A stretch of 61,827 nt of DNA, from positions 1 to 61,827 of the forward strand of contig JAZTYQ010000010.1 in assembly GCA_045637065.1 (NCBI GenBank). Reading direction: 5' to 3'. The notes below the pieces were generated by a model. The model was not told the origin of the DNA, ran no database searches, and worked only from the letters and a program-made list of their open reading frames with translations. The stretch comes from Acutalibacteraceae bacterium. Its GTDB lineage: Bacteria > Bacillota > Clostridia > Oscillospirales > Acutalibacteraceae. Both the position numbers and the translations under genes were made by a program. Positions 40,471 to 43,534 of this stretch are shown here, one piece after another; position 1 is the first letter of the stretch; the number at the start of each line of letters is the position of its first letter.

Positions 40471-40590
40471 ATGTTTGATATCAAGGAAGTATCTAATGTC
40501 GAGGCTACCGGCTCCCTTTTGGGTTCTGTAATTAGCTGTGCCGGCACATGGGGAGGAGTTTACTTGCTCTATCTTGCTGCTTGCTGCTGA
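40471..40590 (+). CDS. RiPP-like precursor peptide A1 (39 aa, MFDIKEVSNVEATGSLLGSVISCAGTWGGVYLLYLAACC)
   Basis: ATG 40471 lies 8 nt after AAAGGAGG. The peptide has a polar N-terminal 13 aa, a hydrophobic Gly/Ser-rich C-terminal 26 aa and ends in Cys-Cys. A second copy at 40867 differs by 8 synonymous changes and 1 non-synonymous change. Confidence 0.75.
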   Translation: MFDIKEVSNVEATGSLLGSVISCAGTWGGVYLLYLAACC

Positions 40591-40636
40591 TGCTGATTAA
40601 GCCACAATTACTAAAAAAGCTAAGGAGGTGAATACA

Positions 40637-40792
40637 ATGGCATATAAAGATTCCGAAAATTTCCGTGAAGATTATCCCAACGGTTACTCCAAAAACGGAG
40701 ATGTTTATGATGGTAATGGCAATAAAATCGGTTATGTGACCGGAGACGGCGACTATCGTACTAAAGATGGCCAACTTTATCATAATCACTAA
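40637..40792 (+). CDS. Small hydrophilic Gly/Asp/Tyr/Asn-rich protein (51 aa, MAYKDSENFREDYPNGYSKNGDVYDGNGNKIGYVTGDGDYRTKDGQLYHNH)
   Basis: ATG 40637 lies 7 nt after AAGGAGGTG, between the two precursor genes. Contains a repeated (D/N)G-x-x-x-Y motif. Too short for the ORF track. Confidence 0.55.
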   Translation: MAYKDSENFREDYPNGYSKNGDVYDGNGNKIGYVTGDGDYRTKDGQLYHNH

Positions 40793-40866
40793 TTTAACAT
40801 AATACAAACTATACAAGCTGTAACCTCGGTTGTGAAGTAATTACTTAAGGAAGGAGGATGTTAACC

Positions 40867-40986
40867 ATGTTTGATATCAAGGAAGTATCTAATGTTGAAG
40901 CTACCGGTTCCCTTTGGGGTTCTGTAATTAGCTGTGCTGGCACATGGGGAGGAGTTTATCTGCTCTATCTTGCCGCTTGTTGCTGA
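40867..40986 (+). CDS. RiPP-like precursor peptide A2 (39 aa, L17W variant of A1)
   Basis: ATG 40867 follows GGAAGGAGGATG. The peptide is MFDIKEVSNVEATGSLWGSVISCAGTWGGVYLLYLAACC. There are 9 nucleotide differences from A1 in 120 nt, and only ttg to tgg changes the peptide. Confidence 0.75.
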   Translation: MFDIKEVSNVEATGSLWGSVISCAGTWGGVYLLYLAACC

Positions 40987-41091
40987 TTAACTGAAGCCCA
41001 TCTAAAACGTCCCGTGGTTATTATTCGGCAGAATAATCGCGGGACGCACATTTTTTATATTATCTTGTTATAGTTGTTGGAGGACAGAACA

Positions 41092-42150
41092 ATGGAATAT
41101 CTAATGATAGGAAATCATATTGAAGCGTTTCCCTTAGAGGATGATAGGCTTCAAATATTCAATAGAAATACTGGGAAGACATATACATTAGGCAAGAGTG
41201 AGTCATTTGTATTTCAACTTTTGAATGGTACGAATTCAGTTGATGATGTTTTACATAATTGCCCGTATTATAATAAGCAGGAAATTGAAGCATTGATAAA
41301 GGCTTTTTCTGATATAGGTTTTTTTGATAAAGAGAAGACAATATTTAATCCGTTCAAAATCAAGCTGAGATTATTTAATCCGAATAAATTGATAAAAACT
41401 GAATCTATTATTACGAAACTTTCACATTATGCAATTCTGTTCATATGTCCCATCATTTTTATTGCTAGTATAATTGCACATCAAGCTATTATCAAAGATT
41501 CTTTGTATTTTTATAGTCAGGCAATGGCAGGAATGGCAGATCTAGGTGTTGCTGATTGGCTGCTGGTAGCTTTTTTCTCTTTGTTATGCCTTGCATTGCA
41601 CGAATGCGCTCATATGGTCTCAGCGCGAAGATACGGTGTAAATGTTCCCGAAATAGGAGTAATGCTTTATTTTTTAATTCCATGTGCATATACGAATATA
41701 TCCGGTATTAATCTGATTAAGAGCAAAATACAGCGTTTGATAATTTTGGCTTCAGGCTCTCTTGTTAATTTTGCTGTTATCGGCACATGCAATATTATAA
41801 TGTGTACGGCAACATCAAAAATGGTTGTGTCATACTCAGCAGCTGTAGCTTTGGCCAATATTGGAACAATAATTATGAATATGATGGTTTTGCTCAAATT
41901 TGACGGGTATTACGCACTGGAAGTGATATTGGGTGAACCAAAGTTTCGTGACAATGCTTTGAATTTTATTATTGTATTCATAAAAACGATATTTAGCAGA
42001 AATAAGACAGAAAAAAATAAATTCAAGCAAATACTGAATGCTCAGGAAAATATTTTAAGGCACATTGTGTACGGGGTATATTTTGTGTTTTCAGTAGGGT
42101 ACATACCTATCATACTGACGAATACCGTTATTCCATTTTTTGCGAGATAA
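41092..42150 (+). CDS. Membrane M50 (site-2-protease-like) zinc metalloprotease with N-terminal PqqD/RRE-like domain
   Basis: Contains HECAH (HExxH, nt 41599-41613, aa 170-174) in a TM segment, a second M50 motif NMMVLLKFDGYYALE (LDG-type) and at least 5 TM segments. The N-terminal 85 aa or so (LQIFNRNTGKTYTLGKSESFVFQLLNGTNSVDDVL...EIEALIKAFSDIGFF) resemble PqqD-type peptide-recognition elements. ATG 41092 follows GGAGGA. Confidence 0.7.
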   Translation: MEYLMIGNHIEAFPLEDDRLQIFNRNTGKTYTLGKSESFVFQLLNGTNSVDDVLHNCPYYNKQEIEALIKAFSDIGFFDKEKTIFNPFKIKLRLFNPNKLIKTESIITKLSHYAILFICPIIFIASIIAHQAIIKDSLYFYSQAMAGMADLGVADWLLVAFFSLLCLALHECAHMVSARRYGVNVPEIGVMLYFLIPCAYTNISGINLIKSKIQRLIILASGSLVNFAVIGTCNIIMCTATSKMVVSYSAAVALANIGTIIMNMMVLLKFDGYYALEVILGEPKFRDNALNFIIVFIKTIFSRNKTEKNKFKQILNAQENILRHIVYGVYFVFSVGYIPIILTNTVIPFFAR

Positions 42151-42163
42151 ATAGGAGGCAACT

Positions 42164-43534
42164 ATGAAACTTACATTAAATCCTTACGCACTGATTATTA
42201 AAGATAGCAATAGATTGATATTTATTCTATCAGACACAGATAATCCGATTGTTGTAGAATTTACTGAAAAACATCTTCAGATGCTTAAGAAAATGCATGA
42301 AGGGGAATTCATTGAATACGAGGTGCTTTGTAGGATATTTGGCGAGAAAGTGATAAGAGAACTATTCAATTCTGGTTGCTTTTTGCAGACCAGAATTGAT
42401 ACTGAATCTTTGTTTTCCAGAACAGATGCTTTTTTTATGAGTCACAATATGCCAATTGCGCGAGAAAAGCTCAAAAACAAAAAAGTTTTAATTCTTGGCT
42501 GTGGCGGAATCGGAACACATATGGCATGGCATATGGTTACACTCGGGATAGAGAAATTAACGATAGTTGATTTTGATACTGTTGAAAAAAGCAATTTTAA
42601 TCGACAATTGATATTCGACAATTTCGATATCGGAAAAGAAAAAGTAAATGCTCTTAAAGAAAAGCTTTCTGCTATAAATCCAGATATAAAAATCGAGGCT
42701 ATCGTAAAATGCATAGAATCAGAGAAAGATTTAGAGAATATATGTACCTCGGACAAGTATGATCTTGTTATTAAGGCGCTTGATACTCCGACAAACTTTC
42801 CGATATGGCTCGATAAAGTAGCTCAACGATACCAACTGCCATATATAACAGGTATAACAATGCGTGAAAATGTACTGATTGGGCCATCTTTCATTCCCGG
42901 AAAAAGCCAATATGGCTTGTCAGAGTTAATGGGGATTGATGGAACAGAAACATCAGAAAAACTTTATGGAATATCCCCTAGTTTGGGAATTATGCTGTAT
43001 AACATTTCTGATGAACTTTCCGTTGAAGCATTCAAAATACTGACCGGATATGGCGCTCCGAAATACATTGATACTGTTCTTTGTCGAAATATTTTAACGG
43101 ATGAAAGACACTACTTGGGAAATCCGAACAGGTTAGAAAAAAACAGCAATTCGAGTACGCCTGAAAACAGTAAAAAAGAACTATTATTAGATATTATTGT
43201 AATGATAATTCTGGCTGTTGCAGGAATATGTCAAAGTTTCTTTATTCCTGTATCATTTGTTGCAGCAATATCATTACCGCTTCTTATATATAAATCCAGT
43301 AACGATGTGGTAAGATGTGCATTTTTAAATGCATCGATTTTTTCAATAGGTCTTTTAGTAACACTCATATCAACAATCAATCTAACTACCTCGATTGCTT
43401 TTATTTCTTCGGTTTCGATTTTGTTCAGCATTCATAGTGCTTTGATTTTGTTAATTTGTTCAATAACACATGTGTTTAACAAAGTCTTTAATCGAAAGAA
43501 CTTAAATCAAAATATCAAAGTATCAAACAGATAA
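42164..43534 (+). CDS. ThiF/MoeB/MccB-like E1-type adenylyltransferase with N-terminal peptide-clamp-like domain and C-terminal multi-TM anchor
   Basis: Contains KKVLILGCGGIGTHMAW (GxGxxG, nt 42497-42514) and LTIVDFDTVEKSNFNRQLIF (the E1 D-x-D-x-x-x-x-SN-x-x-RQ ATP/Mg site). The first 100 aa or so are non-Rossmann with an RRE-like pattern (FTEKHLQMLKKMHEG...VLCRIFGEKVIRELFNSGCF). The last 110 aa or so hold 3-4 hydrophobic helices. Confidence 0.75.
   Translation: MKLTLNPYALIIKDSNRLIFILSDTDNPIVVEFTEKHLQMLKKMHEGEFIEYEVLCRIFGEKVIRELFNSGCFLQTRIDTESLFSRTDAFFMSHNMPIAREKLKNKKVLILGCGGIGTHMAWHMVTLGIEKLTIVDFDTVEKSNFNRQLIFDNFDIGKEKVNALKEKLSAINPDIKIEAIVKCIESEKDLENICTSDKYDLVIKALDTPTNFPIWLDKVAQRYQLPYITGITMRENVLIGPSFIPGKSQYGLSELMGIDGTETSEKLYGISPSLGIMLYNISDELSVEAFKILTGYGAPKYIDTVLCRNILTDERHYLGNPNRLEKNSNSSTPENSKKELLLDIIVMIILAVAGICQSFFIPVSFVAAISLPLLIYKSSNDVVRCAFLNASIFSIGLLVTLISTINLTTSIAFISSVSILFSIHSALILLICSITHVFNKVFNRKNLNQNIKVSNR

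Follow-up and report, generated by a model that had tools for sequence, protein, structure and literature searches.

What becomes of two nearly identical 39-residue peptides when they are encoded beside a membrane protease and a membrane-bound adenylating enzyme? This question is raised by the region at positions 40471-43534 of a contig from an Acutalibacteraceae bacterium (assembly GCA_045637065.1, contig JAZTYQ010000010.1), which we analysed as one stretch of 61,827 nucleotides, here called the window. The region holds five open reading frames (ORFs) in one orientation, and a GGAGG-type ribosome-binding site lies before each of them. A preliminary description of this DNA read the region as a cluster resembling those for peptides that ribosomes make and that are modified after translation (RiPPs), with duplicated precursors, an M50 protease carrying a RiPP recognition element (RRE) and a membrane-anchored ThiF enzyme similar to MccB, and the comparative evidence given here supports this core reading. 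With somewhat better than even confidence, we regard the cluster as a RiPP pathway for hydrophobic peptides, in which a daptide-type leader and peptidase are combined with an MccB-type ThiF adenylating enzyme and the peptide C-terminus is adenylated. Gene content, conservation, family assignments and catalytic residues were observed directly; the features of the region, with lengths in amino acids (aa), are as follows.

40471-40590, plus strand: precursor peptide 1, 39 aa; an ORF with an AGGAGG ribosome-binding site that matches the leader hidden Markov model (HMM) at 5e-7.
40637-40792, plus strand: hydrophilic ORF of 51 aa, with 76 homologous clusters at 63-92% identity.
40867-40986, plus strand: precursor peptide 2, 39 aa, equal to copy 1 except for L17W; it matches the leader HMM at 2.8e-7.
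41008-41056, plus strand: hairpin followed by a T-run between precursor 2 and the M50 gene, from RNA folding, with the T-run read from the sequence.
41092-42150, plus strand: M50 (site-2 type) intramembrane metalloprotease, 352 aa from its ATG, the predicted leader peptidase; Pfam Peptidase_M50 at 1.6e-8.
42164-42448, plus strand: predicted N-terminal peptide-clamp or RRE-like domain of the ThiF protein (aa 1-95), from an AlphaFold2 model and Foldseek.
42461-43123, plus strand: ThiF/E1-type adenylation domain (aa ~100-320); Pfam ThiF at 2.5e-39.
43163-43534, plus strand: predicted C-terminal four-helix membrane domain (aa 334-455) and basic tail of the ThiF protein, from AlphaFold2 and hydropathy.

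Both precursor genes encode the sequence MFDIKEVSNVEATGSL(L/W)GSVISCAGTWGGVYLLYLAACC, and precursor 1 is predicted to split into the leader MFDIKEVSNVEAT and the core GSLLGSVISCAGTWGGVYLLYLAACC. The N-terminal region is acidic, with a net charge of -2. The two gene copies differ at nine of 120 nucleotides; eight of these differences are synonymous and the ninth produces L17W. Synonymous changes make up 23.6% of all possible single-base changes in the precursor gene, which gives a probability of about 7e-5 for at least eight synonymous changes among nine, and the flanking DNA of the two copies is unrelated save for the AGGAGG ribosome-binding sites. Because nearly all changes are synonymous and the flanks share only the ribosome-binding site, the pair appears to be old duplicates kept by purifying selection on the peptide. 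The preliminary description had already read the same counts as a sign of purifying selection. A protein search with a 42-aa extended version of the precursor ORF returned eight clusters, all near-identical, since such short ORFs are rarely annotated by gene callers. Precursors of related loci were instead pulled from the loci themselves by regular expressions and an HMM.

The conservation of this arrangement was followed through the ThiF protein. About 90 full-length homologues that share its transmembrane (TM) domain were found at 34-71% identity, nearly all from metagenomes and mostly from gut Clostridia; the few named hosts are Ruminococcaceae/Oscillospiraceae and Mobilitalea. A scan of species-representative genomes with the ThiF alignment, whose back-translated patterns are generic ThiF motifs, gave at least six useful loci (L005-L009 and L015). 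Fifteen distinct homologous loci were compared: in every one the M50 gene is the immediate upstream neighbour of the ThiF gene, and one to three short precursor genes with a shared leader lie within 2 kb upstream in 13 of them. Thus, the small ORFs are conserved beside homologous enzyme pairs in other genomes, a point on which the preliminary description had made its reading depend. Over 31 distinct precursors the leader follows the motif F-(D/E)-I-x-E-(V/I)-x-x-(V/I)-E-A-(T/P). Predicted cores span 20-30 residues and are hydrophobic, rich in Gly/Ala and in small-xxx-small patterns and almost uncharged; those of the close clade lack Asp and Glu and contain one Lys or Arg at most. Two or three different core types occur side by side in several loci. 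All 31 precursors have Cys in one of the last two positions, with 27 ending in -C, two in -CD and two in -CY. On these counts a single terminal Cys is the signature of the family, rather than the Cys-Cys end first proposed from the window peptides.

The protease agrees with its first description as a multi-TM M50 protease with HECAH and an LDG-type motif. Its Pfam match is above the cut-off, HECAH occupies residues 170-174 and an FDG motif contains D271; the HExxH residues H170, E171 and H174, together with D271, are invariant across 12 homologues. Five hydrophobic segments were found. The best NCBIfam match is daptide_HExxH (2.7e-32, residues 13-307), but its 112 bits fall short of the equivalog cut-off of 300; the M50 proteins of relatives reach 128-135 bits against the same model. 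On this comparison the window protease is homologous to the daptide peptidase and has the same architecture, yet is not its equivalog. Its first ~80 residues are predicted to form an RRE-like N-terminal domain, with a match to SCM_PqqD_rel of 0.014 over residues 17-56. A single-sequence structure model of the protease had a mean predicted local distance difference test score (pLDDT) of 40, too poor for a fold search.

The ThiF protein (42164-43534, plus strand, 456 aa) carries its Pfam ThiF match at residues 100-316, GCGGIG at residues 112-117 and DFDTVEKSNFNRQ at residues 136-148. Across 22 aligned homologues, the most distant at 32% identity, GxGGIG, D136, R147, Q148, K160 and D207 are invariant. 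R147, K160 and D207 are the counterparts of EnfB R167, K180 and D225, which are reported as essential (PMC12250964). Among the same 22 homologues no Cys is conserved besides C113 of the glycine loop, and no CxxC zinc motif was found in the ThiF protein. When the family profile was compared with solved structures, MccB scored best (8e-40, 140 bits), followed by MoeB (92 bits), PaaA (81 bits) and ThiF (78 bits), and the window protein falls far below the cut-offs of the NCBIfam ThiF and MoeB models. An AlphaFold2 model (pLDDT 84) shows an N-terminal domain, the adenylation domain and four long C-terminal helices in this order. Residues 1-95 are modelled as four short strands and then three helices (pLDDT ~83-95). 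Foldseek aligned the model with MccB over nearly its full length, at E ~1e-20 over 335-350 columns, including the N-terminal peptide clamp, at ~21% identity; PaaA followed, again nearly complete and with its clamp included, and then MoeB and ThiF. The model therefore places a peptide-binding (RRE or clamp) domain in fusion with the ThiF adenylation domain, in line with the ~100-aa N-terminal domain that had been likened to the MccB and PaaA clamps.

The membrane domain, for which three to four C-terminal TM helices had been proposed, is modelled as four helices at residues 334-356, 360-375, 379-402 and 410-455. Hydropathy and the positive-inside charge pattern also suggest four TM helices with both ends cytoplasmic (N-in/C-in). 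The domain is present in all full-length homologues, and a search with it alone against 1.84 billion representative proteins gave three matches, all from the same family, and so pointed to no other function. Neither the isolated N-terminal domains nor the isolated TM domain matched Pfam, even at E<=10.

The link of the leader and the peptidase to daptides had gone unnoticed in the preliminary description. Daptide precursors have a conserved N-terminal ELExMEAP, in which Pro is leader position -1, and their clusters hold 2.3 precursors on average and an RRE domain fused to an intramembrane site-2 protease (PMC10036551). The leader motif ends with EVSNVEAT in the window and with E(I/V)ExIEAP-type sequences in relatives (EIEAIEAP, EVESIEAP, ELETIEAP and EVEALEAP). 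Precursors of four relatives score 30.2, 27.8, 21.1 and 16.4 bits against NCBIfam daptide_123, the first two above and the last two below the cut-off of 25 bits. Owing to the leader motif, the daptide_123 matches of relatives and the daptide_HExxH matches of relatives and of the window, the leader and the RRE-M50 peptidase would together constitute a daptide module, and cleavage is likely to occur after E-A-T, so that the core would begin at Gly14.

From these observations we infer how the leader is bound, where adenylation and cleavage take place and which role the peptides have. Both 39-aa precursors would be made, and the hairpin after copy 2 would probably yield more precursor than enzyme transcript. 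Both enzymes would bind the acidic, strand-forming leader (F-D-I-K-E-V-S-N-V-E-A-T) through their RRE-like N-terminal domains. The four TM helices would hold the cytoplasmic ThiF domain at the membrane, near both its TM-helix-like substrate and the M50 protease, and with ATP and Mg2+ this domain would adenylate the alpha-carboxylate of the C-terminal residue. We propose this site because of the chemistry of the enzyme family and because the predicted core has no other carboxyl group. Capture of the acyl-AMP by a nucleophile would then remove the C-terminal negative charge. The terminal Cys thiol is favoured as this nucleophile, since it is the sole core feature conserved across the family and since GrcB offers a precedent; the end product could be a C-terminal thiolactone, or the thiol could form an intermediate thioester from which an amine takes over the acyl group. 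Alternatives would be direct amidation and attack by the amine of the new N-terminus. A thiol-derived product is a tentative candidate, amidation or capture by another external nucleophile is unlikely, and a head-to-tail or other intramolecular ring is decidedly improbable. Finally, the M50 protease would cut off the leader after E-A-T (E-A-P in relatives) and release 26-residue, uncharged, GxxxG-rich peptides that act on membranes. The products are probably a multi-peptide bacteriocin or cytolysin carried as cargo by a mobile element, and, if daptides are a guide, the purpose of the chemistry would be to remove the C-terminal negative charge of a membrane-active helix. We go on to a broader claim with slightly less than even confidence: that the cluster represents an undescribed RiPP class, with a daptide-like scaffold whose invariant C-terminal Cys is remodelled by a membrane-anchored MccB-like enzyme into an uncharged or cationic group. 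Candidates for this group would be a thiolactone, a thioester-derived amide or a decarboxylated terminus.

Several points weigh against this proposal. The peptide modification is predicted from sequence, enzyme family and models. The window precursors match no NCBIfam or Pfam model, and their link to daptides runs through relatives and through the leader HMM built here from related loci. The RRE assignment of both N-terminal domains draws on fold prediction and on profile matches that are weak or partial; a profile-profile comparison of the M50 and ThiF N-termini was in register and insignificant (E 0.036, probability 1.4%). If a terminal Cys closed a thiolactone, the ring would be strained and have four members, whereas the -CD and -CY variants would give a seven-membered one; a single thiol chemistry shared by all is therefore not obvious. 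Neither in the window nor in the close clade does a transporter or immunity gene adjoin the cluster. In two distinct loci (L090/L091 and L092) the M50 and ThiF genes occur with no detectable precursor within 7 kb. These loci belong to a branch of the family at 36-40% identity that retains the M50 and ThiF-TM pair (L090 5911-8383, L091 3213-5685, L092 5921-8419), and type III CRISPR genes lie near the pairs of L090 and L091.

Four other explanations were weighed. The ThiF protein could be a non-catalytic scaffold that binds the leader, in the manner of YcaO/azoline systems, and the peptides class II-like hydrophobic bacteriocins that are unmodified or modified by a YcaO enzyme; leader removal by the M50 protease would then be the only processing in the window. 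Such a role fits the YcaO proteins (615-633 aa) encoded after the ThiF gene in L004-L007, with B12-radical S-adenosylmethionine (SAM) and ATP-binding cassette (ABC) transporter genes in that branch, and ThiF-like partners of YcaO enzymes are described as serving only to dock the peptide (PMC12150305, PMC12596934). However, tblastn, with two YcaOs of relatives among the queries, detected homologues of YcaO, radical SAM or ABC proteins neither in the window nor in close-clade loci, and all the ATP- and Mg-binding residues are invariant in the 22 homologues, YcaO-associated ones included, which is unexpected for a docking-only protein. Daptide clusters, moreover, carry tailoring YcaOs beside catalytic C-terminal enzymes (PMC12670281). 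We therefore regard a docking role as clearly unlikely. Chemistry of the GrcB type, in which a side-chain carboxylate is adenylated and the C-terminal Cys thiol attacks it to form a large thiolactone macrocycle, would need a Glu or Asp of the leader, for example the Glu of V-E-A-T, and cleavage upstream of it. GrcA likewise has 39 residues and ends in Cys, GrcB fuses an RRE to a ThiF domain, the terminal Cys is what the cores here conserve, and the Glu of (V/I)-E-A-(T/P) is kept in most precursors. Nevertheless, this explanation is very unlikely: Asp and Glu are missing from the close-clade cores, some relatives have Thr or Asp in place of the leader Glu (EVTAP in L015, SIDAP in L004), the daptide motif ends at position -1 and so puts this Glu in the removed leader, and the radical SAM and Rgg/SHP genes of grc clusters are not present.

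The peptides could also be signal-peptide-like precursors of hydrophobic signalling peptides of the mobile element, with L-A-A-C resembling a lipobox and the protease acting like Eep, the M50 protease that makes enterococcal sex pheromones from lipoprotein signal peptides. The island has VirD4/TrwB-type coupling ATPases, as do most related loci, many C-termini (LAAC, ALAC, ILAC, AVAC and YLAC) resemble the L-[ASTVI]-[GAS]-C lipobox, and the lack of a nearby transporter or immunity gene would suit signalling peptides. But the acidic N-terminal region has no basic n-region as in Sec or lipoprotein signal peptides, and nothing follows the Cys, so no lipoprotein would be made. A conserved and catalytically intact adenylating enzyme with a peptide-binding domain would be left without a role, and distant relatives lie in ordinary chromosomal RiPP-like contexts with ABC exporters; on balance we see hardly more than a slim chance for a pheromone. 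The last explanation, that the ThiF protein works like an E1 enzyme and activates another protein (for example a sulfur carrier or ubiquitin-like protein with a Gly-Gly end) and that the small ORFs are incidental, is the most improbable of all and is largely refuted by the comparative data. It draws on generic E1/ThiF/MoeB profile matches, on PADLOC matches to E1-E2 proteins of cyclic-oligonucleotide-based antiphage signalling systems (CBASS) over ~110 residues, on a 199-aa ORF ending in -GG that lies 8.4 kb upstream of the ThiF gene, and on separate JAB-ThiF modules on related mobile elements. Yet no conserved catalytic Cys, CxxC zinc site, rhodanese domain or E2 domain was found in the protein, purifying selection acts on the small ORFs, which are conserved and duplicated, and MccB scores far above MoeB and ThiF. 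No ORF of ThiS or MoaD size ending in GG occurs in the window either, and no partner resembling ThiS or MoaD goes with the family; the grouping with MoeB/ThiF and a ThiS/MoaD partner that the preliminary description had considered was thus not borne out. A reading as CBASS Cap2 E1-E2 was rejected, as the PADLOC matches span the generic E1 core only and include no E2 domain. The 199-aa protein (33124-33723, plus strand), the one real protein of the window with a -GG end, was likewise rejected as an E1 substrate, having no homologue in any related locus.

Two further features lie between the genes of the proposed RiPP pathway. The hairpin after precursor 2, which had not been mentioned before, folds at 41008-41046 with a free energy of -22.2 kcal/mol (z -3.56; none of 200 shuffled sequences folded as well), and its T-run follows at 41051-41056. 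A simple terminator scan did not list the hairpin at 41008-41046. Together, the hairpin and the T-run are likely to be a partial terminator that gives an excess of precursor over enzyme transcript, because such a layout is common in peptide operons with more precursor than enzyme transcript. The 51-aa ORF has Gly/Asp/Tyr-rich repeats and a weak Pfam Bflower_2 match below the cut-off. It belongs to a widespread family of proteins of 50-90 aa, which elsewhere stand beside NUDIX hydrolase genes with no M50 or ThiF near; among the related RiPP loci it recurs only in L085. For these reasons it is a real small-protein gene, but probably a passenger rather than a core member of the cluster. Thus, of the five-gene cluster first described, the five co-oriented ORFs with strong ribosome-binding sites stand, and the 51-aa ORF drops out as unrelated and probably a passenger.

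The peptide cluster lies within a low-GC island (~20000-47700), with a GC content of 0.31-0.40 against ~0.45 in the flanks, which are chromosomal (Mfd, IF-2, NusA and RibF). The right edge of the island falls at tRNA-Tyr and tRNA-Thr genes (47487-47659, minus strand). No exact att-type direct repeat of >=14 nucleotides was found between the tRNA end and the left side, and no Pfam-recognisable integrase was found. The cluster is downstream of a VirD4/TrwB-like ATPase gene, and its close relatives follow TraG/VirD4-like and ClpP-like genes on similar elements. Distant relatives are in chromosomal contexts with an ABC exporter, and one branch has YcaO and B12-radical SAM genes.

Other parts of the window were also inspected. 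At 23064-31760 (plus strand) the island contains a single ORF of 2898 aa, whose only Pfam matches are ATPase_2 and AAA_22 at residues ~2144-2390. The genes at 33124-39753 (plus strand) encode products of 199, 151 and 302 aa, an OmpA/MotB-like protein of 401 aa, products of 101 and 227 aa, a TrwB/VirD4-like protein of 433 aa (PADLOC mad8, 4e-14) and a product of 288 aa. Homologues of the 302-aa and OmpA-like proteins are encoded directly upstream of the M50 and ThiF genes in L090 and L091, and the 288-aa protein recurs in L086; these genes are carried by the same type of element as the peptide cluster. The ~1 kb 3' of the ThiF gene (43535-44537) contains no convincing gene. It includes a 65-aa ORF (43772-43969) and a fragment of a flavin mononucleotide oxidoreductase (44153-44470, partial Pfam Oxidored_FMN) followed by a terminator-like hairpin (44474-44502), and looks like a gene remnant. 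At 8327-14461 (plus strand), terminase large subunit, portal and capsid genes form a phage-like module of normal GC content, perhaps what is left of a small prophage or an element of the transfer-agent type. A glycine riboswitch (48324-48411, plus strand; Rfam RF00504, 59.5 bits) stands directly 5' of a sodium:alanine symporter gene (48517-49902).

Additional genes accompany the cluster in several relatives. In the most distant branch, at 33-37% identity (L004 9370-13277, L005 7812-11042, L006 6632-8530 and L007 9284-12342), the YcaO gene comes after the ThiF gene. An ABC transporter gene directly follows the ThiF gene in L004, L005 and L006, a PqqD-like protein and a B12-radical SAM enzyme are encoded before the YcaO gene in L004 and L005, and L007 has a second daptide-type M50 gene after its YcaO gene. 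This gene content suggests that the same Cys-terminated peptides undergo further tailoring. In L085, the closest relative, the DNA downstream of the cluster (8755-10675) encodes a second RRE-like M50 protease of 322 aa, a protein of 182 aa and a membrane protein of 130 aa; the 182-aa protein has a CHDVY/HExxH-like motif and a homologue in L086. These genes may form a second peptide-processing or immunity module. A separate module just downstream of the peptide cluster was found in L001 (8412-13005), L002 (3930-8523) and L087 (8837-13903), and is not present in the window. It encodes a JAB-ThiF fusion of 542-556 aa together with a protein that has a transglutaminase core and several small proteins, and is reminiscent of systems for ubiquitin-like conjugation or for defence.

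If the broader claim of an undescribed class is correct, this small cluster of four genes in 3 kb would provide the first ThiF-like RiPP enzyme that acts at the membrane, and mobile elements would be spreading sets of synergistic membrane-active peptides among gut Clostridia. The peptide chemistry known from ThiF-like enzymes is growing fast and includes phosphoramidate, thiolactone, imide and indolylamide links, and three features found here are unseen in the characterised cases: a membrane-embedded enzyme, very hydrophobic substrates without a side-chain carboxylate, and an invariant terminal Cys. A daptide leader and peptidase module recombined with a different C-terminus-modifying enzyme would illustrate the modular evolution of RiPP pathways, and suggests that neutralisation of the C-terminal carboxylate in membrane-active peptides has been solved more than once. 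Since mobile elements carry the family in gut Clostridia of humans and animals, its products could affect how members of the microbiome compete. A membrane enzyme that activates peptide C-termini could also become a useful tool.

How does the cluster compare with known systems? The preliminary description knew of no class that pairs such a ThiF enzyme with an M50 protease, and our full-text literature search likewise found no paper describing the combination of an M50 protease, a ThiF-TM protein and a Cys-terminated precursor. Its list of ThiF-type RiPP enzymes, MccB and PaaA, has since been overtaken: GrcB, EnfB and IndF are also characterised, and all five nucleotidylate a carboxyl group that a nucleophile then captures (PMC12250964, PMC12596934, PMC12150305). 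Neither an M50 protease nor a membrane-anchored ThiF-like enzyme is mentioned in these three papers, and the 2025 reviews describe most of the ThiF-like family as unexplored (PMC12250964, PMC12596934). The cluster lies outside the daptide, microcin C and GRC classes, because the features that define each of them fail here.

The closest overall likeness in leader and peptidase is to the daptides (MpaA/DapA and MpaP/DapP; Ren et al. 2023, PMC10036551). In both there are several similar short precursors per cluster, an acidic leader and a hydrophobic, helix-prone core. The end of the leader here resembles ELExMEAP, and the intramembrane site-2 protease, with its predicted RRE-like domain, is homologous to the daptide peptidase but scores below the equivalog cut-off. 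The C-terminal residue is invariant in both; it is the site of chemistry in daptides and the proposed site here. Occasional YcaO and ABC transporter genes, in our case in relatives, and a frequent location on mobile elements are also shared. Nevertheless, there are clear differences. The first is the residue itself: daptides are defined by an invariant C-terminal Thr that is converted into a dimethyl-propanediamine (Dmp) terminus (PMC10036551, PMC12749797), whereas the C-terminal residue here is Cys, and the daptide decarboxylase MpaC did not accept a Thr-to-Cys substrate variant. The second is the modifying enzyme, which here is a ThiF-like adenylyltransferase with a membrane domain. Pfam families of DapB (DUF-RRE), DapC (alcohol dehydrogenase), DapD (aminotransferase) and DapM (methyltransferase) were absent from 46 scanned ORF products, and for this reason a Dmp terminus cannot be made here. 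The scan took in 40 of the 95 listed ORFs of >=90 aa and six shorter ones and covered all genes within ~8 kb of the cluster; the ORFs outside it mostly overlap annotated genes, many on the other strand or in another frame, and a few are short and intergenic.

MccB, the microcin C7 synthetase, is the closest solved structure. Like the window protein, it has an N-terminal clamp or RRE followed by a ThiF adenylation domain, and it acts on the C-terminal carboxylate of a ribosomal peptide, the same site that we propose. The substrate of MccB, however, is a hydrophilic heptapeptide ending in Asn, in contrast to the 39-aa hydrophobic peptides ending in Cys, and its chemistry, a succinimide and then an N-P bond, needs the Asn side chain. 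MccB contains a tetra-Cys zinc site and has neither a TM domain nor a leader peptidase, whereas the ThiF protein here has no CxxC and no conserved Cys pair. GrcB, from the GRC-type thiolactone peptide pathway of Streptococcus pneumoniae, is similar in being a ThiF domain fused to an RRE, with a 39-residue precursor ending in Cys, whose thiol is joined to the adenylated side chain of Glu35 (PMC12596934). Compared by description, GrcB activates this Glu four residues before the Cys, but the cores here have no acidic residue; it also has no TM domain and no M50 partner. The grc clusters encode a pair of radical SAM enzymes, an RRE that stands alone, a transporter and regulators of quorum sensing; the window cluster has none of these.

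EnfB (enterofaecin) and IndF (indolylamide) share the proposed site of activation. Both are RRE-ThiF enzymes that adenylate the C-terminal alpha-carboxylate of a peptide with a leader, which an internal nucleophile captures, and EnfB also amidates it with free amines (PMC12250964, PMC12150305). The short cores of their substrates have WIVI or NWYFI at the end rather than Cys, the enzymes are soluble, and the associated protease is of the M16 or another type, not M50. IndF and the window ThiF protein share 45% identity over 49 residues (46 bits), in the nucleotide-binding core only and with an IndF sequence that was machine-read with errors. The leader of IndA, MEDFNILELEFEEI (PMC12150305 supplement), resembles both the window leader MFDIKEVSNVEA (40471-40509) and the daptide ELExMEAP, which hints at a shared and very old code for the recognition of leaders by RRE domains.

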